Below, piece after piece: positions 33,799-56,056 of a DNA stretch of 64,000 bases; position 1 is the first letter of the stretch, and the number at the start of each line of letters is the position of its first letter. This DNA is from an uncultured Bacilli bacterium (GTDB lineage: Bacteria > Bacillota_I > Bacilli_A > RF39 > UBA660): the NCBI GenBank assembly GCA_910587325.1, contig CAJUKB010000001.1:53883-117882 (forward strand). The letters are read 5' to 3'. The translations under genes and the position numbers were made by a program. The notes under the pieces were generated by a model. That model searched no databases. It was given only the letters and a program-made list of their open reading frames with translations, and had not been told where the DNA came from.

Positions 33799-34134
33799 TT
33801 ATATAAATGGTTTTATTATTCCTAAAACATCCTGAAATAAAATACCCAATAAACTAAACAACAATGGCAAATAATACCGCATGAATATATCCACTTTTCT
33901 ACGATTATAATTTTTAATTCCTATTTTTTTAAACCACCATTCATAAAATTTAGTATTTTCTTTATCCTTATTCTTAAATTGATAATGTGATAAAAAACAA
34001 CCGTCGTTGGTTTCTAACATACAAATATGCATAAGTGATAATAAGGCTATATATTTCCAAGATAACCAAGTCCAAGATGTCCAAGCAATTATTGTAAGTA
34101 GAAAATGTACAATTATACTTAAAATTTTTAACAT
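33799..34134 (-). CDS. small membrane protein
   Basis: 111-aa ORF with hydrophobic N- and C-terminal segments. Confidence 0.5.
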   Translation of the reverse strand: MLKILSIIVHFLLTIIAWTSWTWLSWKYIALLSLMHICMLETNDGCFLSHYQFKNKDKENTKFYEWWFKKIGIKNYNRRKVDIFMRYYLPLLFSLLGILFQDVLGIIKPFI

Positions 34135-34178: not shown

Positions 34179-34553
34179 CTAGTAGCCTTTTTTCTTATAA
34201 TATTTATACAATTCTTTAAAACGATTAAAATGAATAATTTCTCTTTGTCTTAAGAATAGTAGTGGCCCTATAACGTCTTCATCGGTTGCAAGTTCTATTA
34301 AATTTTCATAAACCGCTCTTGCTTTTTCTTCTGCCGCCATATCCTCAGATATATCCGCAAGCACATCTCCTGTTACAGCAAAGTAGCTAGTTGTAAAAGG
34401 AACTCCACTTGCATTTGACGGATAAACTCCTAAAGCATGTTCAGAATACATATCTCCTAAACCTGCTTCCTTCATTTCTTCAACACTTGCGCCTTCTGTT
34501 AATTGTTTAATCATTGTAGCAATCATTTCCACATGCCCAAGCTCTTCTGTACG
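34179..34553 (-). pseudogene. cotJC: 3' two-thirds of spore coat protein CotJC (manganese-catalase family), truncated by prophage insertion
   Basis: The frame reads stop-RTEELGHVEMIATMIKQL...EDMAAEEKARAVYENLIELATDEDVIGPLLFLRQREIIHFNRF. Compare B. subtilis CotJC ...TDIGTEEFAHLEMIATMVYKL...EDIAAEEKARATYQWL...FLREREIVH. About 65 N-terminal codons are missing. Stop at 34554-34556. Confidence 0.8.
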
Positions 34554-34582
34554 TTAACGATAGAGATGTAAAACAGTTATAA

Positions 34583-36391
34583 TTAAAATCTAGGGTGTAT
34601 TGCTATTGAAAAGTTATTCTCGTAACCACGTCCGCCTTTTTCTTTCTTATAATCTACATAAGATATAACAGACTTTAAGAGTTTGTTTTTCTTTTCTGCT
34701 GTTTTTACTCTCCAATATGAATCAATTACTTTTTCTATTTTTGGAAGCAATTTCTCGATTTTATCTTTATTAAGTTTTGTCTGGTACTTAGATAGTTCTT
34801 TTGTTGTTGCATTTATTTTATCTTTTATTACTTTAGAGCGTTTTGTAAAATCTTCTGGAGTATATACCTCTTGTTCTAAGAGTTCGTATTGCTTATCTAA
34901 TTGTTTATTATATTTCTCTAAGTCTTTACATAATGCTTGATACATTATATTATCGTCTTCCTCGGCTGGATTATACGTCGTTAGGAGCTCTTTTTGTGTG
35001 TTTAGATACTCTCGTAACCCTTTTATAACTTCCGCCTCTACAAGCGATAAATTAGAGCCTATATTGGTACAATGTGCTTTCTGACATATCAAGGTATCTT
35101 CGTGAGGATCTATTGTGTTCTCCTCGAATGTTGTAATAGCCTTGTCAAACTCAGTAGTAGTAATGTTTAGTAGTTTCTTTAAGTCTTCCCATTTATCAGC
35201 ATAAGGCATAGTAAACTTATCTTGCGTAGAACTAAACCAATGATCTACGCTGCATTTACTAACTCCTAAAGCTGTGGCTATATCTCTTAGACTGTAATCG
35301 CCTTTATGTTCTCTTAGACATAGGCGTAGTTTTTCTTTATCTACTTCATACTTACGCCTTAGTTTAGGCTCTTGCTTTTTATTTTCATAATAAGGACGTC
35401 TTTGCATAGATCTTCCACAATCAGCACATCTAATTAAAGTAGCTAGTGGATTCTGTAATTCGGTACCATGTGTAGTACTTACTTGTTTAGGTTGGATTCC
35501 TTGAACTATATTGAATAGATCTTCTTCTATTATAGCTGGGTGCAATCCCTCGACAAGTATTATTTCGTCCTTAGTTCCTTTTTTACGTTTCTTCACAATT
35601 TGCCCGTTAACTAAGCTCTTATGTTGTTTGTTACTGTTCCACCTTATCTTACCTAGATAAACTGGATTAGATAGTATTCCTTTAATTGTGGACGGAGTCC
35701 ATACATCTGACTTTTTAGGACGAAACTCTAAAGTATTAAGCCAGTTGCATATAATATCGTGTCCCATGCCGTCAGCACGTTTCTTATACATCTCTTTTAC
35801 GACTTCTGCTTCTTCTGGTATTGGTTCTAGTGTAAAACCTTTGTCATATTTTAATTTTACCTTTTTATACCCAAAAGGAGGCTCTGACGCACAATATTTA
35901 CCAGCTAGTACGTTTGCTAACCTTTGGCGTTGCATACGTCTGTTAATAGCTTTATATTCACGCCTAGACATAAATAAACCGAACTCAAAGTATTCTTCGT
36001 CGTCGTCGCTGTTTGGATCATATATTTTATTAAGAGTAATAATTAAAGTATTTGAATACTTAAAAGCCTGTGAAATAGTACCTTGATCTTTAGAATCTCC
36101 ACGAGTAAGACGTTCTACTTCTACAACTAAAATTCCGTCAACAGTTCCAGTCTCAATGTCTTTTAAGACCTTTTGTATTTCTGGTCGTTCTTGGATTGAT
36201 TCTCCCGAAACTACTTCACGATATATATGTCGTATCTTTATACCAAGTTGTTTAGCTCTATCTTTTAAAAACTTCTCATGTTGTTTTAGCGTATCGAATT
36301 TTTTAAGTCTTTCTAGTTCCATATCGGCTCTTGATTTTCTTAAATATGCGTCATAGATCCCGTTAGGATCCAGCGTGATTACATTATACAT
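34583..36391 (-). CDS. large serine recombinase (phage integrase)
   Basis: 602 aa. Resolvase-type N-terminus AYLRKSRAD...REVVSGES. Recombinase region and zinc-ribbon CADCGRSM. Coiled-coil C-terminus. Adjacent to the cotJC junction. Confidence 0.9.
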   Translation of the reverse strand: MYNVITLDPNGIYDAYLRKSRADMELERLKKFDTLKQHEKFLKDRAKQLGIKIRHIYREVVSGESIQERPEIQKVLKDIETGTVDGILVVEVERLTRGDSKDQGTISQAFKYSNTLIITLNKIYDPNSDDDEEYFEFGLFMSRREYKAINRRMQRQRLANVLAGKYCASEPPFGYKKVKLKYDKGFTLEPIPEEAEVVKEMYKKRADGMGHDIICNWLNTLEFRPKKSDVWTPSTIKGILSNPVYLGKIRWNSNKQHKSLVNGQIVKKRKKGTKDEIILVEGLHPAIIEEDLFNIVQGIQPKQVSTTHGTELQNPLATLIRCADCGRSMQRRPYYENKKQEPKLRRKYEVDKEKLRLCLREHKGDYSLRDIATALGVSKCSVDHWFSSTQDKFTMPYADKWEDLKKLLNITTTEFDKAITTFEENTIDPHEDTLICQKAHCTNIGSNLSLVEAEVIKGLREYLNTQKELLTTYNPAEEDDNIMYQALCKDLEKYNKQLDKQYELLEQEVYTPEDFTKRSKVIKDKINATTKELSKYQTKLNKDKIEKLLPKIEKVIDSYWRVKTAEKKNKLLKSVISYVDYKKEKGGRGYENNFSIAIHPRF

Positions 36392-36663
36392 CTTGCACCT
36401 CCTTATCTTTCATAATTCTATCAACCTCTGCTTCATACTCGGCGATTTTATTCTTATCAAAGTTTTCTAAATGTCCTAGTTTGTAGTGTAACATTTCATG
36501 TATGAAACGCTTTTTCTTTTTCTATGTCAGAAAGTGAATCATTTACGATTATATAAGTACCGTTCTCGGCTTTCATAATAAAAGCTCGTACTTTAGCTGG
36601 TGCTTTTATAAACAAAAGAGTCAAATTGTCTTTTTCGGCAATTTTCGCCAACTTTCCATACAT
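36384..36663 (-). pseudogene. ImmA/IrrE-like HExxH metallopeptidase, frameshifted in an A-run
   Basis: Below the ORF-track cutoff. ATG 36663 (GGAGG RBS) reads MYGKLAKIAEKDNLTLLFIKAPAKVRAFIMKAENGTYIIVNDSLSDIEKEKAFHT-stop at 36496. The neighbouring frame reads KKKKRFIHEMLHYKLGHLENFDKNKIAEYEAEVDRIMKDKEVQDV-stop, overlapping the recombinase ATG. The switch point is GAAAAAGAAAAAG at 36509-36521. Confidence 0.55.
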
Positions 36664-36720
36664 AGGCAATACCTCCTAAGAACACGGGTACTGCTTAACT
36701 TTGTGTCTTTTTATTCCTTT

Positions 36721-37095
36721 CTATTTCTTTTCTTTTGTTTTATCAATCTTTGTAACTATATCAACAATATCAGCTACTTGGTTTAGTTCTTCGTCGTCTA
36801 ACTCTCCAAGTTTATCAAAAAGAAGACTGATCCGCTTATTTTCTATTAACTTGTTGTACTTCTCGATATTCTCTAAATTATAGGGTGTTACTTCTTCTTT
36901 TCCTAAAAGGTAGTCTGTTGTTGTATTTAGAGCTGTTGCTATTTCTGATAAGATGTCTGGTCGTGGCATTTGCAAGTTATTTATATATCTTGAGACTGCT
37001 GCTTCTGTAACACCAATTTTAGTAGCGAGTTTTCTTTGTGAGATCTTATTTTTCAATAATAGACTCTGTAACTTTCTTCCAAAATCGTTTTCCAT
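36721..37095 (-). CDS. XRE-family phage repressor (CI-like)
   Basis: HTH ISQRKLATKIGVTEAAVSRYINNLQMP. ATG 37095 with GGAGGGG RBS. Divergent from the cro-like gene. Confidence 0.85.
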   Translation of the reverse strand: MENDFGRKLQSLLLKNKISQRKLATKIGVTEAAVSRYINNLQMPRPDILSEIATALNTTTDYLLGKEEVTPYNLENIEKYNKLIENKRISLLFDKLGELDDEELNQVADIVDIVTKIDKTKEKK

Positions 37096-37173
37096 AATGT
37101 CCCCTCCAATTACCGATATTATAACACTTTTTGTCAAAAAAGAAAGAAAACTTACTAAAATGATAAAAAAGTG

Positions 37174-37202
37174 TTGACTATCTTTCCAAAATGATATACA
37201 AT
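37174..37202 (+). promoter_or_regulatory. early rightward promoter
   Basis: TTGACT (37174-37179), 17-nt spacer, TACAAT (37197-37202), directly followed by an operator repeat. Confidence 0.55.
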
Positions 37203-37210
37203 TTAGACAT

Positions 37211-37231
37211 AACTTACCGAAATAATAAGTT
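37211..37231. promoter_or_regulatory. operator-like inverted repeat AACTTACCGAAATAATAAGTT (copy 1)
   Basis: 6-bp arms AACTTA/TAAGTT around a 9-nt spacer, 9 nt downstream of the -10 box. An exact 21-bp copy lies at 37458-37478. Confidence 0.6.
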
Positions 37232-37255
37232 TCGGAGAGATTAAGGAGGTCAAAA

Positions 37256-37456
37256 ATGAATACATTGTTACTTGTGTCGAAAAGAAACCTTAAAGGGTAT
37301 TCTCAAGAGCAGACTGCTAAACTACTTAATCTGTCTAGTGTTCAATATGGAAAAAAAGAACGAGGAGAAAAAGACTTCAAAACTGGGGAGATTAAAAAAT
37401 TGAAAATACTTCTTGACTTGTCGGATCAGGACATTTTAGATATTTTTTTTAAATAA
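37256..37456 (+). CDS. Cro-like XRE-family HTH protein
   Basis: 66 aa. YSQEQTAKLLNLSSVQYGKKERG HTH. AAGGAGG RBS. Confidence 0.8.
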   Translation: MNTLLLVSKRNLKGYSQEQTAKLLNLSSVQYGKKERGEKDFKTGEIKKLKILLDLSDQDILDIFFK

Positions 37457-37457
37457 A

Positions 37458-37510
37458 AACTTACCGAAATAATAAGTTAATAAGTAAATAACTTACCGAA
37501 TAAATTTAAC
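37458..37510. promoter_or_regulatory. operator-like repeats (exact copy 2 at 37458-37478 plus half-matching copy at 37490-37510)
   Basis: AACTTACCGAAATAATAAGTT is repeated exactly. AACTTACCGAATAAATTTAAC shares the left arm. Confidence 0.5.
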
Positions 37511-37522
37511 TAGGAGGTGCCT

Positions 37523-37744
37523 ATGAAAAAGGAAAACGAAAAACCAGAAATAAAACCTAAAGTAACAATCGTTTTAGATTGTGTTCCCACTAATATTGAG
37601 GAACGCAAGAACAATATACGCAAGTTCTATGATGTATGTAACGAAGTAATAGACGATCCTAGCTGCTTTTATACAGAGCAGGAAATCGAAGAATTGAAAA
37701 ACAATCCTAAGAAACAAAAGGAATTGAATATAAAGTTTATCTAA
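37523..37744 (+). CDS. hypothetical phage protein
   Basis: ORF 37517..37744. ATG 37523 after TAGGAGG. Confidence 0.55.
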   Translation: MKKENEKPEIKPKVTIVLDCVPTNIEERKNNIRKFYDVCNEVIDDPSCFYTEQEIEELKNNPKKQKELNIKFI

Positions 37745-37764
37745 AAATATGGAGGGAAATAAAT

Positions 37765-38013
37765 ATGGAAACTAAAATCAAAGAAATATTAAAAAAATAC
37801 AATTACACTTATCAAGGATTTTATAACTTGATAGTACAAAAACACGGAGAGAGCTATATCATTGTCGACGAGTTTGAGGAGTTTTACTACGGAAGCCAAG
37901 ACTTTGATAATTTACTAGAGGATCTAACATCAGACTTAAAAAAACTTTTTGAAAATGATTCTCTTTACTTAGAGTGCGAATGTCCCGGACGTTGGGAAAT
38001 TGCTTTTATGTAA
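37765..38013 (+). CDS. hypothetical phage protein
   Basis: 82-aa ORF with GGAGGG RBS. Confidence 0.55.
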   Translation: METKIKEILKKYNYTYQGFYNLIVQKHGESYIIVDEFEEFYYGSQDFDNLLEDLTSDLKKLFENDSLYLECECPGRWEIAFM

Positions 38014-38084
38014 TAAGGATTATTAAAGGAGGTGGTCTTATGTGAAGATTAAAGTTTTAAGAAGCTAAAAAAGGAGGTGGAAAA

Positions 38085-38330: not shown

Positions 38331-38405
38331 GCAAGACCTCTCAATGGAATATTTTGTTAAATATTCACTCCACTATTATAGCAAAAAGTGGAGTTCTAGT
38401 CAAAG

Positions 38406-39122
38406 GTGGTGGTAAGTATCAATGGAAATTGGATTAAGCTCTTTACTAAGTTTACAACTTGGGAATGGTATAAAGATCAGAATACGAAATCATTGTTTAT
38501 ACACTGCCTACTAAAAGCTAATTGGAAAGAAGCAAAGTTCATGGGAGAGATAATCCCTAGAGGTAGTTTTGTAACTTCTTTAGATTCACTAGCTAAAGAA
38601 CTAGGTTTGTCAGTCCAAGAGATTCGGACAGCACTAAAACACCTAATTTCAACAGGCGAATTAACAAGCAAAAGTACTAATAAATACCGCATAATTACTG
38701 TGGTAAATTACGAAATGTATCAGCAAGTTAACAAGCAACCTAACAGTCCATTAACAGGCAATCAACAAGCAACTAACAATCAACTAACAACAATAGAAGA
38801 ATATATAGAATATAAGACTAATACAGAATATAAGAATAATAGTGTGTGTAATAATACGCCCGAGGAAAACTTTTCTTGTCATTTAGGCTGTATCTATAAA
38901 ACTCTTGATTGTAAAAATTGCATGAAGAAATGGAAATGTCCTTTACCAGACGAGCCTACCTTTAAAGGACTCCATGGTAAGACATTTTACGAATATGTTG
39001 CGGAGATTGAACTTAGGAAGTTAGAAGTTGCTAGAGAACTAGAAGCTATGGAAGCTATGCGAGGCGACTCTCCTCCAGAACTTACCGATTATGATTGGCT
39101 TAACGATAAGGGGGACGAATAA
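38406..39122 (+). CDS. putative phage replication/DNA-binding protein (winged-helix-like N-terminal domain)
   Basis: 238 aa. N-terminal region WIKLFTKFTTWEWYKDQNTKSLFIHCLLKANW...SLDSLAKELGLSVQEIRTALKHLISTGEL resembles phage replisome-organizer-type proteins by memory. GTG start uncertain. Confidence 0.5.
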   Translation: MVVSINGNWIKLFTKFTTWEWYKDQNTKSLFIHCLLKANWKEAKFMGEIIPRGSFVTSLDSLAKELGLSVQEIRTALKHLISTGELTSKSTNKYRIITVVNYEMYQQVNKQPNSPLTGNQQATNNQLTTIEEYIEYKTNTEYKNNSVCNNTPEENFSCHLGCIYKTLDCKNCMKKWKCPLPDEPTFKGLHGKTFYEYVAEIELRKLEVARELEAMEAMRGDSPPELTDYDWLNDKGDE

Positions 39123-39769
39123 TGAATCGAGAACAATGGCTAGAGGAACGTAAAAAAGGTATTGGCGGCTCTGATGTTGCTTGTATCTTAGGTATGAGTC
39201 CTTATAAAACTAACGTGGCATTATGGGAAGAAAAAGTCGGTATAAAAGAACCAGAAGACATCTCCCAGAAAGAATACGTTAAAAACGGTACTGACAGCGA
39301 GGATCCGTTAAGAAAATTATTCGCTGTGGATTATAAGCAATATGAAGTTTTACACGAAGAAAACGAAATAATCCATAACAAAGAATACCCATTCATACAA
39401 GTTAGCCCAGATAGTAGGCTTGTAGAAAAGTCCACAGGACGTAAGGGATTCTTAGAAATCAAACGTTGTGAAATTATGAATCACAAAATGTATGAAAAGT
39501 GGAAAGACGGCAATATTCCACAAAACTACTATCTACAAACGTTACAGTACTTCTTAGCTGACGAAGATATGGACTTTGGTTATTTAAGAGCCTATCTTAT
39601 CAGACACTTAGCTGACGGTACTGTTATTCGAGAAGTCAGAGACTATGTAATTGCTAATAGTCGGACAGAAGTCCAAGACGATCTCGATTATTTAAAACCA
39701 AAAGAAATAGAGTTCTGGCAATACGTCGAAACAAAGACTAAGCCACCACTACTATTACCACAGATTTAG
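39122..39769 (+). CDS. YqaJ-type viral recombinase exonuclease
   Basis: ERKKGIGGSDVACILGMSPYKT N-terminus is typical of the YqaJ/lambda-Exo family. Positioned upstream of RecT. Confidence 0.8.
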   Translation: MNREQWLEERKKGIGGSDVACILGMSPYKTNVALWEEKVGIKEPEDISQKEYVKNGTDSEDPLRKLFAVDYKQYEVLHEENEIIHNKEYPFIQVSPDSRLVEKSTGRKGFLEIKRCEIMNHKMYEKWKDGNIPQNYYLQTLQYFLADEDMDFGYLRAYLIRHLADGTVIREVRDYVIANSRTEVQDDLDYLKPKEIEFWQYVETKTKPPLLLPQI

Positions 39770-39782
39770 AGGAGGAAATAAT

Positions 39783-40676
39783 ATGGAAAAAAATCTGGAA
39801 ACAGTAGAACAACCACAAGTTGTTAATAGTTTAAGACTTGTTATCAGTCCGTTACAAAAAATGGAAGCTATCAAGTTCAATTATGAAGAATTAAAAGGAG
39901 GACTTACAGCAAGTTTAGAGAAGTATCAGAACCTTGTCTATACACCAGAGAATATCAAAGAAGCTAAAGACGACCGTGCTACTCTTAATGCACTAAAGAA
40001 ATCCTTAAATGACGAAAAAATTAAAATCAAAAAGGAGTTTGAAGTTCCTTACAAGGACTTTGAAGAAAAAATCAAGGAACTTATGGAACTTGTAGATAAA
40101 CCTGCGAGTGAGATTGATAAACAGGTTAAAGCCTTTGAGGAACAAGAGAAAGCTAAAAAGCGTGAAATAATCAATACTATCTATTCTGAGAATATTGGTT
40201 CATACGCAGAACTTATCTCTTTAGAGAAATTATATGATCCACGTTGGGAAAATAAAACCTATAAAGAGACAGATATTAAAAAAGAGATTCAAGATGTTGT
40301 TAAAAAAGCTGATAGCGACATCAAAATTATTGAGGATCTAAAGTCTGAATTTGAGTTTCAAATTAAAGATACATACTTTAAGACTCTTGATTTAGGACAA
40401 GCTCTTGTCGAGAATCAAAGACTAGAAAAACAAAAAGAACTACTTGCTAAACCACAAACAACCGAAGTAAAAGTTGATCCAGTTAATAGTATTCATGACG
40501 ACGACGCTGTGGACGCTATGAAGTATGCGGTTGGTGTAGATACTTCTAACGAAGAATCTAAGCAAGAAGAACAAGAAATGTGTTCCGTAGTATTTAGAGT
40601 AAATTGTACTCCAGAACAATTAAAAGCTCTGGGAGAATATATGAGAGCTAACGGAATTGAATATGGGAGGGCTTAG
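39783..40676 (+). CDS. phage protein, DUF1351-like by position (between Exo and RecT)
   Basis: 297 aa, coiled-coil rich. The assignment is positional and from memory of similar modules. Confidence 0.45.
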   Translation: MEKNLETVEQPQVVNSLRLVISPLQKMEAIKFNYEELKGGLTASLEKYQNLVYTPENIKEAKDDRATLNALKKSLNDEKIKIKKEFEVPYKDFEEKIKELMELVDKPASEIDKQVKAFEEQEKAKKREIINTIYSENIGSYAELISLEKLYDPRWENKTYKETDIKKEIQDVVKKADSDIKIIEDLKSEFEFQIKDTYFKTLDLGQALVENQRLEKQKELLAKPQTTEVKVDPVNSIHDDDAVDAMKYAVGVDTSNEESKQEEQEMCSVVFRVNCTPEQLKALGEYMRANGIEYGRA

Positions 40677-40678
40677 TT

Positions 40679-41575
40679 ATGGCAGTAAGTAATAAACTAG
40701 CCCCTGTTGCTCCTACTAAACCAGCAGCTCCAAAACAGACCTTTACTGACTACATTACACAGGAAAAAATTAAAACTAAAATCAAAGACATGGTTGGGGG
40801 TAAAAACAGTCAGAGATTTATAACAGCTATTGTAAGTGCTGTATCTAGTAATGGAGATCTAGCAACTTGTACTTTCGGGACTATAATTGCTGGAGCCCTA
40901 CTTGGAGAAAGTTTACAGCTCTCTCCCTCTCCACAACTAGGACATTACTACTTAGTTCCGTATAACATCAAAAAGAAAGACGCTAACGGGAATGAGTATT
41001 GGGAAAAAGTTGCTCAGTTCCAACTAGGTTATAAAGGCTATATTCAATTAGCTGTTAGAAGTAATTTCTATCGTGATATAGACGTTTTAGAGATTAAAGA
41101 GGGAGAATACCTTGGACGAGACCAAAATACTGGGAAACACTGTTTTAAGTTTATTAGCGATTGTGAAGAACGCAAAAATAAAAGTACGATTGGTTATTTG
41201 GCATACTTTGAATATCTAAACGGATTTACTAAACATATCTACTGGACTAAAAAAGATATGGAAGATCATGCAATAACTTATTCTAAGGCTTATAGAGGCG
41301 ATAAGGAAAAAGGTACATCTTACTCTTTCTGGACTACCAAGTTTGACGATATGGCATTTAAGACCATGATAAGACAGTTAATATCTCGTTGGGGAATTAT
41401 GTCTATCGAATTACAAACAGCTATTGAACGTGATATGGCAGTTATTGAGGAGAACGAAAGCTACGAATATGTAGATAACGACGAACCAGTAATTCCTATC
41501 GCTCCAGCTGTCGAAAAACCAGTACAAGAAAAAGATCCAGCTGACAACGCTGTGGATCAATTCTTTAACCAATAG
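40679..41575 (+). CDS. recT: RecT-family single-strand annealing recombinase
   Basis: QFQLGYKGYIQLAVRS and surrounding blocks are typical of RecT. Adjacent to Exo and SSB. Confidence 0.8.
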   Translation: MAVSNKLAPVAPTKPAAPKQTFTDYITQEKIKTKIKDMVGGKNSQRFITAIVSAVSSNGDLATCTFGTIIAGALLGESLQLSPSPQLGHYYLVPYNIKKKDANGNEYWEKVAQFQLGYKGYIQLAVRSNFYRDIDVLEIKEGEYLGRDQNTGKHCFKFISDCEERKNKSTIGYLAYFEYLNGFTKHIYWTKKDMEDHAITYSKAYRGDKEKGTSYSFWTTKFDDMAFKTMIRQLISRWGIMSIELQTAIERDMAVIEENESYEYVDNDEPVIPIAPAVEKPVQEKDPADNAVDQFFNQ

Positions 41576-41586
41576 GAGGAAATATT

Positions 41587-42039
41587 ATGAATCGAGTTGA
41601 ATTAGTTGGACGTTTAACTAGGGATCCTGTTTTAAGGTACACCCCTAGTAATCGACCAGTTGCACAATTTACCCTAGCAGTAAATAGACGCTACGCAAAA
41701 GAAACAGACGAAATAAAAGCTGACTTCTTTACTATCATAGCATGGGGAAAACAAGGAGAAAATTGTAAAACCTATCTATTTCAAGGAAGCCAAGCTGGAG
41801 TTACAGGAGAATTAAGGAATCGAAGTTATACAGATAGAGACGGTAATACACGATATATTACAGAAATTTTGGCAGATAACGTCGAGTTCTTGTCTTCTAA
41901 AAAGCCAGAAAACACTACTCCAAGTAACGAATCTATACCATCACAAGTGGAAGAACCTACACCTTACTCTTTCCAAGGAGAACAAAGTTCGCTATATGAC
42001 GAAGAATATACACTTAGCGACGACGATTTACCGTTCTAA
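41587..42039 (+). CDS. ssb: phage single-stranded DNA-binding protein
   Basis: MNRVELVGRLTRDPVLRYT OB-fold N-terminus and canonical acidic tip DDDLPF. Confidence 0.9.
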   Translation: MNRVELVGRLTRDPVLRYTPSNRPVAQFTLAVNRRYAKETDEIKADFFTIIAWGKQGENCKTYLFQGSQAGVTGELRNRSYTDRDGNTRYITEILADNVEFLSSKKPENTTPSNESIPSQVEEPTPYSFQGEQSSLYDEEYTLSDDDLPF

Positions 42040-42736: not shown

Positions 42737-42737
42737 T

Positions 42738-43414: not shown

Positions 43415-43416
43415 TT

Positions 43417-43635: not shown

Positions 43636-43636
43636 T

Positions 43637-45109: not shown

Positions 45110-45124
45110 ATTAGAGGAGGAAAT

Positions 45125-46966: not shown

Positions 46967-47434
46967 ATGGATAACTATTATAGACAAATAGCTGATCTAC
47001 AATGTGCAGTAGAACGTCTAAGAACCTTACAGGAAAAACAAGGAACCATATTCGATAAATACTTCCCTGTTACTGTAAGATATAAGCCTAGTTCTTCTAC
47101 TACTGGTAGTGTCGGCAAAGATAAAATGGTTTCTTACTTGGAGGAATTAGAAGAAACTGGAATCGCTAAAGAACTGGAAGAAGCTATCAAGAACGTTAAT
47201 ACAATCCAGAATCGTCTAAGACGTATGGAGGTTATACTCCAAGGGGTTGAGGACATATCTGGTAACGATAGTTTAGAATATAAGGTAATAAGTTTAAAGT
47301 ATTTTGAGGAAAGAACTTATACATTACAACAGATAGCTGACAGACTCCACTATTCGATAGATAGAATCAAACAAGTAAGTGCTGATATTGAAAGAAAAAT
47401 AAAAGAAAACTATTACACCAAAATTACACAGTAA
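46967..47434 (+). CDS. putative late-gene transcriptional activator (sigma-70 region-4-like HTH; ArpU/RinA-type by position)
   Basis: C-terminal YKVISLKYFEERTYTLQQIADRLHYSIDRIKQVSADIERKI resembles a sigma region 4 HTH. Last gene before the packaging module. Confidence 0.5.
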   Translation: MDNYYRQIADLQCAVERLRTLQEKQGTIFDKYFPVTVRYKPSSSTTGSVGKDKMVSYLEELEETGIAKELEEAIKNVNTIQNRLRRMEVILQGVEDISGNDSLEYKVISLKYFEERTYTLQQIADRLHYSIDRIKQVSADIERKIKENYYTKITQ

Positions 47435-48628: not shown

Positions 48629-48892
48629 ATGAACTTAGATAAGTATATAAAGCAGTTCTTTATTAGTCTGTCTAAGTTTAGTCAATATTACGATATAACC
48701 ATTACTACCTTTGAGAAGTACAACGAGGAATATAATTGTATTTCCAAGAGTATGTTACTTCAATTCAAAGAACCACAGACAAAAGATACTTATATACAGT
48801 ATAAGGAATGGTATAAGAACAAGCAGGAGCTTGTAGTTAGGTTGAATGAGTTATGGCAAAGCCGAAAACAGACAAAGAACAAAAAGAAATAG
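48629..48892 (+). CDS. hypothetical phage protein
   Basis: 87-aa ORF overlapping the terS start by 40 nt. Confidence 0.45.
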   Translation: MNLDKYIKQFFISLSKFSQYYDITITTFEKYNEEYNCISKSMLLQFKEPQTKDTYIQYKEWYKNKQELVVRLNELWQSRKQTKNKKK

Positions 48893-49365
48893 TTGCCTAT
48901 TTCCTAGAATGTAATAATTATAGTGAAACGGCTCGTAAGTTTGGTATGTCTGATACTGGTGTAAGAAAAATAATAAAGAGACACGCTGGTACAGAGAGTA
49001 CGAAACAGTTAGAGGAGAAAAAAAATAATAATACACAGGAAGTCATAAAAGATATGGACGACCGTAAGGAAACGGTTAAGCGTGTATTAGGTAAATTGAT
49101 AAAGAATATTGAAGACAAATGCGATAATATTGATATGTTTACCAGTATAAGAGACTTAGCTATGGCGTATGGTACACTCGTAGATAAAGAGTTCAAACGT
49201 CAAGAGTTAGAGTTAAAGAAGAAAGAACTAGAACTTCAAGCAAAGGAACTAGAGGGCGACGAAAACTTGAACGGATCTATTATTCAAGCGATTACTGGAA
49301 ATATGTCTTCTATATGGGACGACGAGGATCCAGATGTTCAAGATAAAGAAGAAAAGACACAGTAA
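48853..49365 (+). CDS. terS: terminase small subunit
   Basis: N-terminal HTH IVAYFLECNNYSETARKFGMSDTGVRKIIKRH, a coiled-coil middle, and position immediately upstream of terL. Confidence 0.7.
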   Translation: MAKPKTDKEQKEIVAYFLECNNYSETARKFGMSDTGVRKIIKRHAGTESTKQLEEKKNNNTQEVIKDMDDRKETVKRVLGKLIKNIEDKCDNIDMFTSIRDLAMAYGTLVDKEFKRQELELKKKELELQAKELEGDENLNGSIIQAITGNMSSIWDDEDPDVQDKEEKTQ

Positions 49366-50677
49366 GCCTTTTGTATGGGCTCCGCTCTCTAAGAAACAGT
49401 TAAAGATATTGTCGTGGTGGGCTGACGGTAGTCCTTATAAGGATTATGACGGCGTTATAGCTGACGGTGCTGTTAGATCTGGTAAAACAATCTCTATGGC
49501 TCCCTCTTTCATATTATGGGCTATGACAAACTTTGACGGTGTAGATTTCGCACTATGTGGTAAGACAATAGGTTCTTTACGACGTAATGTTATCAATACT
49601 CTAAAAAAACAGATTCTAACTTTAGGTTATAAGTACGAAGAACGTCGTACAGATAACTTAATTATAGTTTATAAAGGAGATTCATATAACAACTTCTACT
49701 TATTCGGTGGTAAGGACGAATCTTCACAGGATTTAATCCAAGGTATGACACTAGCTGGTGTCTTTTTTGATGAAGTGGCACTTATGCCTTACTCTTTCGT
49801 AGATCAAGCTATGGCTCGTTGTTCTATTGAGGGTGCGAAGTATTGGTTTAACTGTAACCCTAAGAATCCGAACCATTGGTTCAAGATAGACTTTATAGAT
49901 AAAGCTAAAGAAAAGAGATTCTTATACTTACACTTTACTATGGACGATAATCTTACCCTATCTGAAAAGGTTAAGCTACGTTATAAGAGAATGTTTGCTG
50001 GTGTTTTCTATAAGCGTAATGTTGAGGGATTATGGGTTACTGCTGAGGGACGTATTTATACAACCTTTGACGATAGCCGAACTATTACTTACAAGGAGTT
50101 TTTAGAAAAATACAGTAAAGATATTATTGCTGCTTATATTGGTGTTGACTTTGGAGGAAATAAGTCCGCTACTTCCTTTACTCTTACGCTAGTAACAAGA
50201 GGATTCAAGGAAGTTATTATTGTTGACGAATGGTATCACAAAGAAGAACTAACTCCTAAACAGTTAGAGACAAACTTTGTAGAGTTCGTTACCAATTCTT
50301 TTCATAAGTTCCCACAGCTGCATGATGTATATTGCGATAGTGCCGAACAGATCCTTATTAGTGGATTGAAAACAGCACTCCTAAAAGCGAGATACACAGA
50401 CGCTAAGGGTATTTTAAGAGGTTACCCTATAATGATTCATAATGCGTTAAAAAAGGAAATTATAGACCGTATCAGATTCACTACTGCTATGTTCGGTCAA
50501 GATAGATTATGGGTTGTTAAAGAAAAATGTCCGAATACTATATCTGCCTTTGATAATGCAGTATGGGACGAAGAAGAAATCGACGACGTTCGTTTGGACG
50601 ACGGTAACTACAACATAGACTCTCTCGATAGTTTCGAGTATTCAATAGAAAAACAGATAAAATTGATTTTAAGATAA
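49334..50677 (+). CDS. terL: terminase large subunit (PBSX-like family)
   Basis: Walker A GAVRSGKT. Walker B-like VFFDEV. C-terminal nuclease-like region. N-terminal FVWAPLSKKQLKIL is typical of this family, from memory. Confidence 0.88.
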   Translation: MFKIKKKRHSKPFVWAPLSKKQLKILSWWADGSPYKDYDGVIADGAVRSGKTISMAPSFILWAMTNFDGVDFALCGKTIGSLRRNVINTLKKQILTLGYKYEERRTDNLIIVYKGDSYNNFYLFGGKDESSQDLIQGMTLAGVFFDEVALMPYSFVDQAMARCSIEGAKYWFNCNPKNPNHWFKIDFIDKAKEKRFLYLHFTMDDNLTLSEKVKLRYKRMFAGVFYKRNVEGLWVTAEGRIYTTFDDSRTITYKEFLEKYSKDIIAAYIGVDFGGNKSATSFTLTLVTRGFKEVIIVDEWYHKEELTPKQLETNFVEFVTNSFHKFPQLHDVYCDSAEQILISGLKTALLKARYTDAKGILRGYPIMIHNALKKEIIDRIRFTTAMFGQDRLWVVKEKCPNTISAFDNAVWDEEEIDDVRLDDGNYNIDSLDSFEYSIEKQIKLILR

Positions 50678-50688
50678 GGAGGTATTTT

Positions 50689-52035
50689 ATGAATGTAATT
50701 ATTGAATATTTAAGAAGCCTAGGCTATAATATAGATTCCGATTATTACGGCTATATCAATACATGGCGAGAGTGGTACGCTGGTAAAGTAAAGAAGTTCC
50801 ACTCTTACAAACAGTATAATGGTAAAAAGCAAGTACCAAGAGAACGTTATACTCTAGGTATGGCTAAAAAAGGTTGTGAGGATTGGGCTAATAAGCTCAT
50901 GAGTGAAAAAGTAACTATCTCTACTACCGACCAGAATACTTTAGACGAGATACTAGAAAGGAATAACTTTTGGCTTAATTCTAACCAATTAGTTGAGGAA
51001 ACCTTTGCTTTAGGTACTGGTGCTTTTGTTGAGTATAAAGCTGGAGACCAACCTGTTATTGATTATGTAATAGCTCCTATGGTATTCCCTCTTAGGTGGA
51101 AGAAAGGCGAAATACTAGACTGTGCCTTTGCTAGTATCATTGAATCTGGAGAACAAAAGACATTCTACATCAATATACATAAGCAAGTTGGTTCTAGGTT
51201 CTGTGTAGAAAATAAAATCATAATAGCTAATAACGACGGTACGTTCCAAGAGGGAGCACTACCTAAGAATGTTATGCCAGTAGTATGGAATGATGTTAAA
51301 ACGTTCCAGATCATAAAGCCTAACATAGTTAATAATATCGACATGGGTAATCCTATGGGAATGGCTATCTTTGCTAACGCTATTGACGAAATGAAGACAA
51401 TAGATCTTATCTATGACAGTTATAAAAACGAGTTTAATCTTGGTAAGAAGCGTATCTTTGTTAAAAGTGGTGCTCTTAACGTTGATTTAGACAATGGAGA
51501 CGCTGTTCCTGTATTCGACGAGAACGATATAGAGTTCTATGCTATGCCAGACGAAGACGGTACAGAAATGATAAAAGAATCTAAGTTCGACATACGAGCT
51601 GAACAACACGATACAGGATTACAAACGAATCTTAACTTATATGGTAAGAAGATCGGATTCGGAGATAATGGCTATAAGTGGGAAAAAGGACAAGTCAAGA
51701 CAGCTACTGAAACTATTAGCGATAACTCTGAGATGTTTAGGAACATTCAAAAACACGAGGTTATCTTAGAACCTGCTTTAATTGGTATGGTAGAAGCTGT
51801 TATGTACTTAAAGACTGGTAAAGTCTATACTGGCGATACTACTATTAACTTTGACGATTCTATTATCGAAGATATGGCAGAAGTTAAGCGTCAAGCTATG
51901 ATCGAGTATAATGCTGGAATCATTGATAAGGTAGAATATTATGTTCGAGTATATAAGATTACTGAGGACGAAGCTGTTAAGAAAATCGAACTCATGGAAT
52001 CAAGAAAGCCTAAAGAAGTTACATACGAGGTATAG
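50689..52035 (+). CDS. portal protein
   Basis: 448 aa directly after terL. SPP1-gp6-like size and order. Confidence 0.75.
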   Translation: MNVIIEYLRSLGYNIDSDYYGYINTWREWYAGKVKKFHSYKQYNGKKQVPRERYTLGMAKKGCEDWANKLMSEKVTISTTDQNTLDEILERNNFWLNSNQLVEETFALGTGAFVEYKAGDQPVIDYVIAPMVFPLRWKKGEILDCAFASIIESGEQKTFYINIHKQVGSRFCVENKIIIANNDGTFQEGALPKNVMPVVWNDVKTFQIIKPNIVNNIDMGNPMGMAIFANAIDEMKTIDLIYDSYKNEFNLGKKRIFVKSGALNVDLDNGDAVPVFDENDIEFYAMPDEDGTEMIKESKFDIRAEQHDTGLQTNLNLYGKKIGFGDNGYKWEKGQVKTATETISDNSEMFRNIQKHEVILEPALIGMVEAVMYLKTGKVYTGDTTINFDDSIIEDMAEVKRQAMIEYNAGIIDKVEYYVRVYKITEDEAVKKIELMESRKPKEVTYEV

Positions 52036-52038
52036 TGT

Positions 52039-53595
52039 ATGCAAGACGACAAGTACTTACAAGAGTTATACGAGAATATCGAAGCTGAACTCTTACGTAA
52101 TATTGCCAGTCATTTAGATATAGACGAGATTGACGGTGGCACAGTTGAATGGCACACTAGGAAACTTAATGAACTTGGAATGTTACATTCTGAGAACATC
52201 AAAGTATTAGCCAAGTACTCTGGTAAGACAGAATCAGAAATAAAAGCTATGTTAAAGAAAGCTGGTTATGGTAATATAGAAGAATCTGCTTTTAAGGAGG
52301 CTTACTCTAAGGGTACATTAGCTAATAAGGCTGTTCCTTTAATGAAGTCAGAAGATTTAAAAGCAATTCTTAATACTTCTATCACTAACTCAGTTGATTC
52401 ATTTAATCTAGTCAATACTACGGCTTTAGAAAGTGCTAACGAGGAATACTTAAAGATTATTAACCAAGTGTATCTTGAAACAGCACAAGGTATCTATGAT
52501 TATAATACCTCTATTCGTAAAGCTACTACTCGTTTAGCTGAAAAAGGTATCAAGGGTGCTAGTTATATGAGAAATGACGGTACTAAGATCATTAGAACCC
52601 TAGAAAGTGCTGTTCGTATGCAAATAATAACAGCTAACAATCAATGCATGTCTGCTATGCAAGAACAACGTGCTAAGGAATGGGGATCTAATCTTGTAGA
52701 AGTATCTTCTCACATGGGAGCTCGTCCTAGCCATGCTGTTTGGCAAGGTAAGATTTATATGCTAGAGGGTTCTAGTGATAAATACCCTAACTTTTACGAG
52801 GCTACTGGTTACGGTAAGGTTGACGGATTGGCTGGAGTTAATTGTCGCCATACTTTCTACCCCTATTTAGAGGGCGTAAGCGAAAAAACATATAAACATT
52901 ACAATCTTAACGAGAATAAGCAGCAATACGAGCTAGAACAGACACAACGTAAGTTAGAACGTAAGATTCGTATTGAAAAGCAAAAGATTGTTGTTGCCGA
53001 AGAAACTGGCGATAAACTCATGTTAGAAAAAGCTAGTATAAAATTAAAAGAACGAAGACAGGCACTAAAAGACTTTATCGAAGATAATAACCTTATGCGT
53101 GATACCTCCAGAGAGTTTACTCATGGATTCGGACGTTCTACATCTCAAAAAGCCACTATTACAAGTAAGAGCGTTGAAAATAAGGCTAACAAGATGTATA
53201 ATCTAGGTAGTACGGAGAATAATGTAAAAGAATACTTACGGGACGCTCCTATTCGTGAGAAAATTAGCAAAGATTATGAGCTAGACAAGTATGTTGAATC
53301 TAAGTGGAATAAACATGATCCTACATCTAAAACTTATGACGGTATGTCTAGTCAAGTAACAGTATCTAAACAAGAAGCAGTTGATCTGATTAAAAAATAT
53401 GCTGGTACTGGTAAATTAGAACGTAATCTTAAAGACGGTGTATGGAAGCATAAAGAAGTTATAGTCTCTGATAAGGTTATTGGTAAAGTCTTAGATTTAG
53501 ATAACAACTGGGTAGATACTAACACATTTAAAATACATTACTCTAAACGTGGAGTACATATTGTACCTACTCTGAAAGGAAGTGATAAGAAATGA
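52039..53595 (+). CDS. MuF/SPP1-gp7-family head morphogenesis protein with ~220-aa C-terminal extension
   Basis: GARPSHAVWQGKIY and NCRHTFYPY blocks (aa ~225-276) are typical of the Phage_Mu_F family. They are followed by a coiled-coil linker and a terminal globular part ending KIHYSKRGVHIVPT. Confidence 0.75.
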   Translation: MQDDKYLQELYENIEAELLRNIASHLDIDEIDGGTVEWHTRKLNELGMLHSENIKVLAKYSGKTESEIKAMLKKAGYGNIEESAFKEAYSKGTLANKAVPLMKSEDLKAILNTSITNSVDSFNLVNTTALESANEEYLKIINQVYLETAQGIYDYNTSIRKATTRLAEKGIKGASYMRNDGTKIIRTLESAVRMQIITANNQCMSAMQEQRAKEWGSNLVEVSSHMGARPSHAVWQGKIYMLEGSSDKYPNFYEATGYGKVDGLAGVNCRHTFYPYLEGVSEKTYKHYNLNENKQQYELEQTQRKLERKIRIEKQKIVVAEETGDKLMLEKASIKLKERRQALKDFIEDNNLMRDTSREFTHGFGRSTSQKATITSKSVENKANKMYNLGSTENNVKEYLRDAPIREKISKDYELDKYVESKWNKHDPTSKTYDGMSSQVTVSKQEAVDLIKKYAGTGKLERNLKDGVWKHKEVIVSDKVIGKVLDLDNNWVDTNTFKIHYSKRGVHIVPTLKGSDKK

Positions 53596-53795
53596 CAGAA
53601 CTAGAGTTTTTAAAGTTTTATGATAAAAATGTAAGAGTTATACTTAACGACGGTACATCTATAACAGGCTATGTATATACTTTTACACGTTCTGTTGATA
53701 GTGATACTGGTATCGCTTCTATCTCGTTAGAATCTAGCGAGGGTTATATCGAAATAATGCAGAATGATGTTAAAAAAATTACTATTACACCTTGA
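53592..53795 (+). CDS. small Sm-like (LSm-type beta-barrel) protein, candidate partner of the MuF C-terminal module
   Basis: 67 aa. VRVILNDGTSITGYVYTF resembles an Sm1-like motif. ATGA overlap with the MuF gene. Confidence 0.5.
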   Translation: MTELEFLKFYDKNVRVILNDGTSITGYVYTFTRSVDSDTGIASISLESSEGYIEIMQNDVKKITITP

Positions 53796-53843
53796 TTACA
53801 CTTTATTAGTGTTATTATGGTATCGTGATAATTTACAATGAAA

Positions 53844-53865
53844 ACTAGCTACGGCTGGTTTTTTT
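53844..53865 (+). terminator. rho-independent terminator inside the structural module
   Basis: ACTAGC (53844-53849) pairs with GCTGGT (53854-53859, one G-U pair). A flanking A-run and T-run extend the stem. T6 follows. Confidence 0.6.
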
Positions 53866-53962
53866 AGTTGATTATACGCTTACTCGATTACAAGAGAATA
53901 AAACGGTTGGTTCGACTTTACTGCCTACAAGCAGAATAAAAACTGAGAGGAGAAGATAATAT

Positions 53963-54526
53963 ATGGATTGGTTAAAAGAGATTTTAACAAACGCAGGAGT
54001 TGAAGAAGAAAAAGTATCTAGTGTTGTAGAAAGTGTTAAAAAGGAAGTTCCTAAGTACTATGTACCTAAGAATGACTTTAACGAAAAAGTAACAGAGGTT
54101 AATACTCTTACTACTGAAAAGACTACACTTACTAAACAGCTAGAAGATTTAAAGAAAGTGGATCCTACTAAGTTACAAGAAACTATTGACGAGCTACAAA
54201 AAGCTAATAAAGAGTTAGAAGATAATAGCAAGAAAGAAATAGCTGACGTTAAGCGTATGAGTGCTATTGATTTAGCAATCGCTAATTCTAAAACTATTGA
54301 TTCTGTATCTTTAAAGGCTCATTTGAACCTAGACAATATTACTTATGACGAAAAAACAGGAACACTTAAAGGAATCGACGAACAAATTAGCTCGATTCGT
54401 GAATCTAAAAAATACTTATTCGAGGAAGCTCCTACTGACGGAGGTATGCCACAAGGTGCAATACCACCAAAAGAAAAAACTATTGACGACGAAATCCGTG
54501 AGAATATTTACGGCGAGTCAAAATAA
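53963..54526 (+). CDS. scaffolding protein
   Basis: 187 aa, helical and charged, immediately upstream of the major capsid gene. Confidence 0.65.
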   Translation: MDWLKEILTNAGVEEEKVSSVVESVKKEVPKYYVPKNDFNEKVTEVNTLTTEKTTLTKQLEDLKKVDPTKLQETIDELQKANKELEDNSKKEIADVKRMSAIDLAIANSKTIDSVSLKAHLNLDNITYDEKTGTLKGIDEQISSIRESKKYLFEEAPTDGGMPQGAIPPKEKTIDDEIRENIYGESK

Positions 54527-54542
54527 TTAAGGAGGAATATTT

Positions 54543-55520
54543 ATGGCTATTACATTAGCACAAGCACAAAACTTATCTCAAAGTAAGTTAACAAACAAGA
54601 TCGTTGACGAGTTTAGAAAGTGTCCTTTATTAGACGCTATTCCATTCGACAACACAGTAAAACCACAAGGTGGTAAAACTCTAGCTTATGTGTTCAATAA
54701 AATTACTACACAACCTAAAGCTGGAGCTCGTAAAATTAACGGAGAATACACTTCTCAAGAAACTGTAACTACACCAGAAACAGTAGTTTTAAAAGTTATG
54801 GGTGGAGCTTATGAGTTAGACCGTGTAATTGCTGCGGACGAAAAACAAGTTGTTGATCATGTACAATTCCAATCTACTCAAAAAGCTAAAGCTACAAGAG
54901 CTTATTTCTTGGATCAATTCATTAACGGAGATGTTGCTGTTGACGCAGACGGATTCGACGGAATTGATAAAGCTGTAAAAGGCACTATTACTGAACGTAA
55001 TACAGAGAATACTTTAGATTTATCTAACTCTGCTGCTATCGACAGTAATTATAAGACATTCTTATATGAACTTCGTAGAATGGAAGCTAAAATGGTTGAA
55101 AAACCTACTCACTACTTAATGAATAGTGATATGTACGCTGTTTTCCAAACTATCGCTGATAGAGTTCCTAATATTCGTTATGATAAAGACGCTTTCGGAG
55201 AAGAAATTATCAAATACGGTAAGGCTGTATTAGTTGATATGGGAGATAAACCGGGTTCTGACGATACAACAGGAGAAACTAATCCTATCGTTGTTAATAA
55301 CGCTGCTGGAGAAACTTCTTTATATGCTGTTGTATTGGGAGAAGATAAAGTTCATGGTGTAAGCCCAGACGGTAACGATATTATCAAGCATTACTACCCA
55401 GACTTTAAGACTGCTGGAGCAGTTAAAAAAGGCGAAGTTGAAATGGTTGGAGCTATCGCTGTTGAAACTACAAGAGCTGTTGGGGTTATCAGAAAAATCA
55501 AAGTTGTTGAAGCTAACTAA
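54543..55520 (+). CDS. major capsid protein
   Basis: 325 aa. Strong AAGGAGG RBS. Followed by a terminator. Canonical position after the scaffold gene. Confidence 0.75.
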   Translation: MAITLAQAQNLSQSKLTNKIVDEFRKCPLLDAIPFDNTVKPQGGKTLAYVFNKITTQPKAGARKINGEYTSQETVTTPETVVLKVMGGAYELDRVIAADEKQVVDHVQFQSTQKAKATRAYFLDQFINGDVAVDADGFDGIDKAVKGTITERNTENTLDLSNSAAIDSNYKTFLYELRRMEAKMVEKPTHYLMNSDMYAVFQTIADRVPNIRYDKDAFGEEIIKYGKAVLVDMGDKPGSDDTTGETNPIVVNNAAGETSLYAVVLGEDKVHGVSPDGNDIIKHYYPDFKTAGAVKKGEVEMVGAIAVETTRAVGVIRKIKVVEAN

Positions 55521-55592: not shown

Positions 55593-56054
55593 ATGTTTAA
55601 AATAAACGCACCAGAAAAGAATTATAAGGGTGTAACAAGTGGAATCGCATTTTCTAACGGAACTGCTACCGCTGAGTTAGACGCTTTTACTAAAGACTGG
55701 TTTTTAAGTAAAGGTTATACTTTAGAAGAAATCAAAAGTACACCTGTTGCTAATAATGGAGCACCTGTTACGGATCCAGAAGCTGGTAAGAATACTGGCG
55801 ACCAAGAAAAGCCTATCACTAAAGCTGAACTTGTAAAAAAAGCTAAAGAGTTAGGTATTGAGGTTAAAAGTAAAGCTACAAACGCTGAACTTGAAAAACT
55901 AATTGCTGATAAGGAAGCAGAGATTGCAGCTGCTGCATTAAAGGCACAAGAAGAATTAAAGAACTCTGGGACTGAGGATCCAGAAGCTGGAGCACCTGTT
56001 ACGGATCCAGAAGCTGGAGCACAAGGAAACGGAGATTCTGAGAAAGGAGAATAA
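55593..56054 (+). CDS. head-associated protein with Rho-N/SAP-like HeH motif and APVTDPEAG repeats
   Basis: KAELVKKAKELGIEVKSKATNAELEKLI resembles a Rho_N/SAP-like motif. GAPVTDPEAG occurs twice exactly, plus a partial copy. Confidence 0.55.
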   Translation: MFKINAPEKNYKGVTSGIAFSNGTATAELDAFTKDWFLSKGYTLEEIKSTPVANNGAPVTDPEAGKNTGDQEKPITKAELVKKAKELGIEVKSKATNAELEKLIADKEAEIAAAALKAQEELKNSGTEDPEAGAPVTDPEAGAQGNGDSEKGE

Positions 56055-56056
56055 TT

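Follow-up and report, generated by a model that had tools for sequence, protein, structure and literature searches.

We analysed a 64,000-nucleotide stretch of DNA from an uncultured Bacilli bacterium (GCA_910587325.1, contig CAJUKB010000001.1; hereafter the window) in which a temperate siphovirus is integrated within cotJC, the gene for a manganese catalase (Mn catalase) of the spore coat. We are almost certain that the prophage splits the gene reversibly, and that its precise excision regenerates an intact gene of 185 amino acids (aa). By analogy with elements described in other spore formers, this excision may be coupled to sporulation and restore cotJC in the mother cell, a reading that we consider to stand at about an even chance.

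The window encodes the C-terminal two thirds of a CotJC-type protein on its minus strand (Table 1). The listed open reading frame (ORF) at 34179..34532 opens with a GTG start codon, and upstream of it the frame is still Mn-catalase-like (R-TEELGHVEMIATM) until it meets an in-frame TAA at 34554-34556, which is derived from the phage. The fragment, read as 124 codons, matched Pfam Mn_catalase (E-value 7e-30) at profile positions 64-190 only, so that residues 1-62 of CotJC are absent from it. A large serine recombinase (LSR) gene has its stop codon 26 nucleotides (nt) from the in-frame stop of the fragment, and the junction on the minus strand reads ...TCGTTAACGT-ACAGAAGA-GCTTGGGCATGTG. No other Mn-catalase gene was found within the window. 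The initial annotation, made from the sequence letters, had described this truncated frame running into a stop, a 602-aa LSR about 26 nt past it and a temperate-phage gene order continuing to the window end. All of these are present in the sequence, with Resolvase and Recombinase domains in the LSR and a gene order that runs from the repressor to the tape-measure position. A shift in base composition at the same border, also described there, was real in GC content (0.275-0.317 for flanking host DNA, 0.33-0.37 for phage DNA) but modest, and since the host rpoB/rpoC genes also reach 0.35, composition alone would not define the border of the prophage. The sign of the GC skew reverses near 37 kb, at the point where the genes change orientation.

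The far end of the prophage was reached by a look-up of its 147-aa tail protein (61778..62221), which led to a contig of another assembly (L001; GCA_950079075.1, CATMXB010000001.1). The two sequences had 0 mismatches over 12,223 shared bases and were therefore taken to represent the same genome. Beyond the phage lysin, the minus strand of L001 carries a 68-aa Mn_catalase fragment and then cotJB. This 5' piece of the lysogen comprises 65 native cotJC codons plus S-V-C (ending ...ATEE-SVC-stop), and the far junction on the minus strand reads ...GATATTGCA-ACAGAAGA-ATCAGTATGTTAACGTTAG. An 8-bp core, ACAGAAGA, is thus common to both junctions, and the core-to-core length of the element is about 37.4 kb. 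The reconstructed phage attachment site (attP) has a dyad symmetry of 17/22 centred on GA inside the core, and the bacterial site (attB) is weakly symmetric. Judged on sequence, the symmetry around the core GA is the layout expected of an LSR attP, and GA is the likely crossover dinucleotide.

The attB site sits on codons T63-E64-E65 of cotJC. Recombination at the core in silico gave ...DIATEELGHVEMIATM... and an uninterrupted 185-aa ORF, of which the window fragment supplies residues 63-185 at 100% identity (tblastn). Residues 2-175 of the joined CotJC aligned with solved Mn catalases (6j42, E-value 1.6e-24; 1jku, E-value 4.9e-17). The junction lies in DIATEELGH, for which 6j42 has DIAIEEFSH, so that EELGH is paired with EEFSH in a conserved E-x-x-H stretch. 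From Mn-catalase structures we take this stretch at the insertion point to be part of the di-manganese metal site. The joined gene is paired with cotJB directly upstream (PF12652, E-value 8e-26), with an overlap of 8 nt. In the lysogen, by comparison, the 3' fragment is promoter-less and the 5' part amounts to a 68-aa N-terminal stub; no phage sequence replaces the missing 120 residues, and cotJC is therefore truly inactivated at this locus. The expectations of the initial annotation for the far end were borne out: extension of the contig past the prophage gave the cotJC 5' fragment flanked by cotJB, the halves joined into an intact frame, and the cores at the two junctions (attL and attR) proved identical.

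The joined gene also exists in nature. Its exact 185-aa product was found on 27 public contigs, and ten prophage-free contigs carry cotJB-cotJC followed by the same neighbours as in the left flank of the window (a 111-aa ORF, a 95-aa ORF, a SpoU methylase, SpoVS and SufB). Our 4,840-bp in-silico join was colinear with these ten empty-site contigs at 98.8-99.7% identity, two of them having deletions among the variable genes that immediately follow cotJC, and the predicted 70-bp attB was exact in all ten. As both the joined allele and attB occur naturally in prophage-free contigs, the prophage is a clean insertion that is present in some strains only. The same allele rules out that the fragment is a decayed remnant, a possibility the initial annotation had raised. 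Among the cotJC variants listed for the species cluster, the split form was seen in 30 of 106 contigs. In one case the 5' piece of cotJC closes with another tail, ATEELTQ, an indication that a second type of phage may use the site.

Two observations concern the neighbours of cotJC. The 111-aa ORF directly downstream (33799-34134, minus strand) had no family match, and its locus encodes products of 65, 70, 71, 88 or 111 aa among strains otherwise 98.8-99.7% identical, with a deletion in 2 contigs. On the upstream side, an empty-site contig of the same species (L018, 5470-6008) encodes a CotJB of 154 aa whose CotJB domain covers residues 73-146 only; no separate cotJA was called there, and the gene upstream of cotJB is a P-type ATPase.

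Table 1. Features of the split cotJC locus and its prophage. Positions are those of the window unless marked L001.
Feature	Position	Strand	Remarks
cotJC 3' fragment, codons 63-185 and stop codon	34179..34550	-	host DNA; starts with the 8-bp core
Junction core ACAGAAGA, recombinase side	34543..34550	-	read on the minus strand
Phage arm between core and recombinase stop codon	34551..34582	-	with GTTAACG half-site
Large serine recombinase (integrase, int), 602 aa	34583..36391	-	
ImmA/IrrE-like (M78, HEMLH) gene in two reading frames	36384..36669	-	between repressor and int
CI/ImmR-like helix-turn-helix (HTH) repressor	36721..37137	-	Pfam HTH_3 2.2e-13; same strand as ImmA-like gene and int
Cro-like HTH protein, first gene of rightward early operon	37256..37456	+	PHROG transcriptional repressor 4.8e-6; HTH_3 weak
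Conserved small protein, 72-75 aa	37517..37744	+	candidate recombination directionality factor, by inference only
Replication/recombination module	38406..42039	+	DnaD-like loader, YqaJ exonuclease, DUF1351, RecT, SSB
ArpU/sigma-70 region 4-like late-gene regulator	46967..47434	+	Sigma70_r4 E-value 4.5e-5, 23.3 bits (cut-off 24.1)
Packaging/head module	48853..55520	+	small terminase-like HTH, large terminase, SPP1-type portal, minor capsid, scaffold, likely major capsid
Connector/tail module	55593..64000	+	prophage runs off the window end
780-aa ORF in tape-measure position	59424-61766	+	
Second core copy ACAGAAGA	L001 20147-20154 (window-equivalent 71924-71931)		beyond the window

The recombinase at the window junction matched Pfam Resolvase (E-value 1.5e-12, residues 15-165), with Ser21 contained in the motif YLRKSRAD, and Pfam Recombinase (E-value 7.7e-23). 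Its best solved relative is SprA/YokA of phage SPbeta (9dxh, E-value 2.4e-35, aligned residues 15-392), and it is 36% identical to the integrase of PhiS63 over about 80% of its length. The Zn_ribbon_recom match was weak (19.2 bits against a cut-off of 25.3), with the cysteine pairs CADC and C..HC both present. An insert of about 85 aa (residues about 340-425), inside which HTH_23 matched weakly (E-value 0.004), lies between the two zinc-ribbon cysteine pairs; by interrupting the ribbon it accounts for the score below cut-off, and it also accounts for the splitting of tblastn alignments to every phage LSR into two pieces. The C-terminal region (residues 472-585) gave weak matches only (DUF7809, Snf7).

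Recombinases 77-100% identical to this LSR were found in other assemblies and metagenome-assembled genomes (MAGs) labelled uncultured 'Mycoplasma', Bacilli and 'Melainabacteria', including IMG/VR contigs. We examined eight related LSR loci, seven of which extend past the recombinase gene (L029 ends inside it). The same phage arm and the core (A/T)C(A/T)GAAGA were observed in all seven (L010-L014 and L027-L028). A readable cotJC 3' fragment beginning at the same codon follows in six of the seven, 62-83% identical to that of the window where scored, and the contig of the remaining one (L028) ends right after the core. On this sequence comparison, the LSR lineage uses one cotJC site in several different cotJC backgrounds. 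One of these loci, L010, compared with window positions 34180-46627, has an identical 602-aa LSR and phage DNA 98.6-100% identical within a different host flank, where the cotJC fragment is 69% identical in protein to that of the window and is followed by a different downstream gene. The presence of a near-identical phage in this flank suggests recent spread across host species.

Timing of the excision is the more difficult part of the argument. Int shares its strand with the repressor and the ImmA-like gene, the three being separated by small gaps or overlapping, so it is plausibly made in the lysogen; in that case a recombination directionality factor (RDF) would decide which way recombination runs. 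Control of LSR direction by an RDF is established generally (PMC5499854, PMC12286644). In a scheme modelled on SPbeta in spsM and skin in sigK, an RDF would set the direction towards excision, the candidate being the 72-75-aa early protein at 37517-37744. This factor would also be made in the sporulating mother cell, where the prophage would excise; the rebuilt cotJB-cotJC operon, of the sigma-E/K type, would then yield CotJC for the coat, and the forespore would keep the prophage. The elements tested in sigK, spsM, spoVFB, spoVR, gerE and yabG were all excised in the course of sporulation (PMC4191935, PMC5595907, PMC5025042, PMC10747680).

The host end of this scheme has a candidate promoter. 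In L018, CATACAATA lies upstream of cotJB, about 20 nt before the ribosome-binding site, and we take it to fit the B. subtilis -10 consensus of both sigma-E (CATACAnT) and sigma-K (CATAnnnTA). This fit, together with the example of B. subtilis cotJ, makes cotJB-cotJC probably a mother-cell operon, and a B. subtilis-type sigma consensus seems usable in this lineage. On both strands together, the 74.8 kb of phage sequence contain the motif CATACA.T only six times. For the phage end, no small protein other than the RDF candidate accompanies the LSR in every relative: the candidate is 79-99% identical in six of six LSR relatives, even where the CI and Cro genes differ. PHROGs and Pfam recognised no excisionase or RDF among 20 small early proteins, and a comparison of the candidate with PDB sequences did not match the SprA-SprB fusion chains. 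Repeated ACTTACCGAA(A)TAA motifs are found at 37457-37516 (plus strand), just upstream of the 75-aa ORF, and also in L014 and L038; one copy belongs to an inverted repeat, ACTTACCGAAATAATAAGT, and the motifs as a group have an operator-like look.

A plainer account is that the prophage inactivates cotJC by insertion and excises on lytic induction only, with no developmental control. The metal-site codons would then have been chosen because they are very conserved, giving a broad host range, in a gene that growing cells do not need, and lysogens would form spores without this CotJC or rely on a paralogue. We give plain lysogeny a substantial chance, though one short of even. The initial annotation had proposed a phage-mediated developmental switch acting on cotJC. 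The structural part of that proposal stands and is extended by both halves, the precise join and the site specificity of the LSR lineage. Developmental control keeps the standing of a proposal; restoration of the frame follows from any site-specific excision and is not in itself evidence for it.

A number of results weigh against the developmental switch, and several of them favour plain lysogeny directly. In the scans, no sigma-E/K promoter preceded int, the repressor, the ImmA-like gene or the 75-aa ORF, a search for the -10 element alone likewise placed none before int or the RDF candidate, and sigma-E/K consensus matches in the prophage were at or below shuffle expectation, the consensus being that of B. 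subtilis and perhaps not the host's. One motif inside the ImmA-like gene, CATACATG, was considered as a sigma-E promoter for int and rejected, as it is wrongly spaced from a -35 element and neither L013 nor L014 conserves it. The 75-aa candidate resembles no known RDF and has no Pfam, PHROG or PDB match, and it is placed in the repressor-controlled early lytic operon behind operator-like repeats, as plain lysogeny would have it. The position of the core on the conserved EExxH codons would by itself explain reuse of the site across hosts, and the phage is mobile and carried by only some strains. Among the samples listed, none had both attL/attR and an identical attB, and the exact attP 45-mer was absent from IMG/VR. 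The CotJC-type catalases of C. difficile are reported to be dispensable for the coat: cotCB and cotD mutants have less catalase activity and no significant coat defect (cited in PMC11222575). If cotJC is likewise dispensable, selection for developmental excision may be weak.

The host itself adds to these doubts, as it belongs to an uncultured lineage in which sporulation has never been observed, and the related uncultured Bacilli orders RF39, RFN20 and ML615J-28 are predicted to include both species that sporulate and species that do not (PMC10868615). Sporulation-related genes in the window and its flanks were limited to cotJB, cotJC, spoVS and an FtsK/SpoIIIE-family gene; NCBIfam and Pfam identified no further sporulation genes among the host ORFs of the window. 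The closest relatives of CotJC, RpoB and the LSR loci all came from uncultured MAGs labelled 'Bacilli bacterium', 'Candidatus Ventrenecus avicola' or 'uncultured Mycoplasma sp.', and a host HIT-family protein had its best match in a Mycoplasma-type HinT model. These matches suggest that the host is a member of one of those three orders of Bacilli with small genomes.

Other considerations tell against plain lysogeny. Every experimentally tested LSR element in a mother-cell sporulation gene was excised at sporulation, with publication bias a possible contributor to this record (PMC4191935, PMC5595907, PMC5025042, PMC10747680). Our scan for promoters relied on the B. subtilis consensus, required a strict distance to the -35 element and was run with shuffle controls, and a real promoter could escape it. 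The 30 lysogens among 106 listed contigs point to a low carriage cost, though plain lysogeny predicts a low cost too.

The gene content of the prophage bears on whether it is still a phage. The packaging/head module includes matches to Terminase_6N (2.6e-13), Portal, Phage_min_cap2 and Phage_scaffold; the major capsid protein, which has no Pfam match, is likely on gene position only, and the tape-measure and connector proteins, with few or no Pfam matches, are likely on size and position. An HNH protein and a methyltransferase are encoded between SSB and the late regulator. Past the window end, L001 adds two tail proteins of about 690 aa, a diversity-generating retroelement (DGR), a 41-aa ORF and an M23/CW_7 lysin. 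The DGR (L001 15114-18542, window-equivalent 66891-70319) targets a 588-aa Mtd_N protein and consists of a variable repeat (VR, 16762-16869), a template repeat (TR, 17248-17355; 108 nt, 90% identical) and a reverse transcriptase (17484-18542). Between TR and VR, eight of the nine internal differences fall on TR adenines. Lysogens of this species (L030-L033 compared) carry a lysin of either the M23+CW_7 or the CHAP+CW_7 type, which indicates module exchange. All modules of the phage are represented, and the long structural ORFs are all intact. The adenine-specific DGR differences, the same phage in another host flank and the lysin differences together point, at the level of sequence, to an active and spreading group of phages and not to a domesticated relic.

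The ImmA-like gene between the repressor and int is unusual in occupying two reading frames. ORF1 (36496-36669) encodes 55 aa, and ORF2 continues in the +1 frame and overlaps the start codon of int, with the switch falling within the stretch GAAAAAGAAAAAGCGTTTC. The conceptual fusion of both ORFs matched Peptidase_M78 at 23.7 bits against a cut-off of 22. The split is kept in all six lineages aligned (the window, L013, L014 and L027-L029; LSR 77-84% identical), with zero gaps across the switch point. Third codon positions vary most in the first frame up to the switch and in the +1 frame beyond it, and ORF2 has no conserved start codon. Conservation of the split with coding-type variation in both frames argues that it is not a recent lesion, and the gene looks like a case of conserved recoding (+1 frameshift or slippage) rather than decay. 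Of 13 database clusters, 12 hold ORF1 only, and one is an 89-aa variant in which an indel further upstream fuses the frames. Inspected by eye, the alignment also shows a conserved hairpin, GCAGTACC...GGTATTGC (36666-36694, minus strand), that encloses the ribosome-binding site of ORF1, and a compensatory change in it, GTAGTACC...GGTATTAC, in L013.

These data bear on a second alternative, a domesticated and defective 'skin-like' element that forms no particles and is kept only as a developmental switch. The two frames of the ImmA-like anti-repressor gene could mean lost inducibility, a megablast search with 23 kb of the prophage gave no match to a sequenced phage, and attP was not found in IMG/VR. 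Against this stand the intact long structural ORFs, the adenine-specific signature of recent DGR activity and the conserved, coding-type variation of both ImmA-like frames. An identical LSR with near-identical phage DNA in a different host background, and a prophage present or absent among strains 98.8-99.7% identical in their flanks, also speak against domestication, which we regard as very improbable. A chimeric assembly, conceivable as the window derives from a MAG, or a pseudogene beside an unrelated prophage is refuted to the point of negligible probability, as both junctions recur in independent assemblies from other samples, the fragments join into a protein found exactly on 27 contigs and the flanks align colinearly with contigs whose site is empty.

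Between the ArpU-like regulator and the small terminase region lies a stretch of about 870 bp (47435-48309) that contains no ORF. It holds a tRNA-like element (47512-47580, plus strand) that scored 27.3 bits against an Rfam threshold of 29 and was not called by ARAGORN, and a sigma-K-like AC-N16-CATACAATA at 47937-47964 on the minus strand. Folding signal in this stretch was not significant (z -1.7 and -0.6), and Rfam at gathering thresholds and ARAGORN returned nothing in the whole window.

By the gene in which it is inserted and the ORF that is restored in silico, the arrangement can be placed, on the sequence, among the known prophages that intervene in sporulation genes. Its closest functional analogue is SPbeta in spsM of B. 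subtilis, about 134 kb in size against 37 kb for the cotJC phage. Both are complete temperate phages with an LSR at one end, inserted in a non-essential, mother-cell-expressed gene of the spore envelope; in both, excision rebuilds the ORF precisely (here in silico), and the integrases are homologous. They differ in target (spsM versus cotJC) and in that SPbeta has the RDF SprB, whereas no SprB-like protein was detected here. No sporulation promoter was found in the cotJC phage, and excision during sporulation has been shown for SPbeta (PMC4191935), whereas here it is proposed by analogy. The skin elements and PhiS63 in sigK (B. subtilis, C. difficile, C. tetani, C. perfringens) likewise bear an LSR and split a sporulation gene, and PhiS63 is a functional siphovirus of 33.6 kb (PMC3442830). 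Their att sites are different, however, and sigK is essential for late sporulation, which makes excision there obligatory, whereas cotJC is probably not essential. The same pattern of serine recombinase, mother-cell gene and reconstitution is seen in vfbin (spoVFB), vrin (spoVR), gin (gerE) and yin (yabG) (PMC4191935, PMC5595907, PMC10747680). Those elements are mostly defective or minimal and occur in cultured Bacillus, Geobacillus or Clostridium, in contrast to the cotJC element, a full phage with a DGR in uncultured gut Bacilli and in several cotJC backgrounds.

The gene itself has been named before: in the account of Kohm et al. (bioRxiv 10.1101/2021.11.22.469490), cotJC is among the integration targets in Abe et al. 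2013 (Mol Microbiol 90:415). We found no experimental study of a cotJC element in the literature. Two apparent precedents were set aside, phi027 of C. difficile because the adjoining CotJC-like gene is intact (678 bp) and not split, and PhiS9 because cotJC is mentioned only as a nearby gene. The present analysis newly contributes the documented far end, the definition of attB and attP, the alleles of empty sites, a site specificity shared across the LSR lineage and an unusual group of hosts. In practical terms, the LSR with its attP of about 50 bp and a defined attB constitutes a ready recombinase/att pair, and the many attB variants in nature document how much sequence variation it tolerates.

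If excision is coupled to sporulation, cotJC would join sigK, spsM, spoVFB, spoVR, gerE and yabG as a phage-switched sporulation gene, and the phenomenon would reach uncultured Mycoplasma-related gut Bacilli, in which sporulation is only predicted. Without developmental excision, the phage would act as a common agent of lysogenic conversion, depriving the spores of gut commensals of a coat catalase, a loss that could affect oxidative-stress resistance and transmission. Taken jointly, the findings may describe active DGR-bearing phages of small-genome gut Bacilli with an LSR dedicated to the E-x-x-H codons of cotJC, excision in the mother cell and an ImmA-type protease made only via a conserved +1 frame change; as a whole we advance this combination tentatively, and hold it to be somewhat doubtful. 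A requirement for the +1 frame change in making an ImmA-type anti-repressor protease would represent a new way to set the induction threshold. Were the joint reading true, the spore-coat catalase would be phage-switched across many species, the first such switch outside cultured Bacillus and Clostridium.

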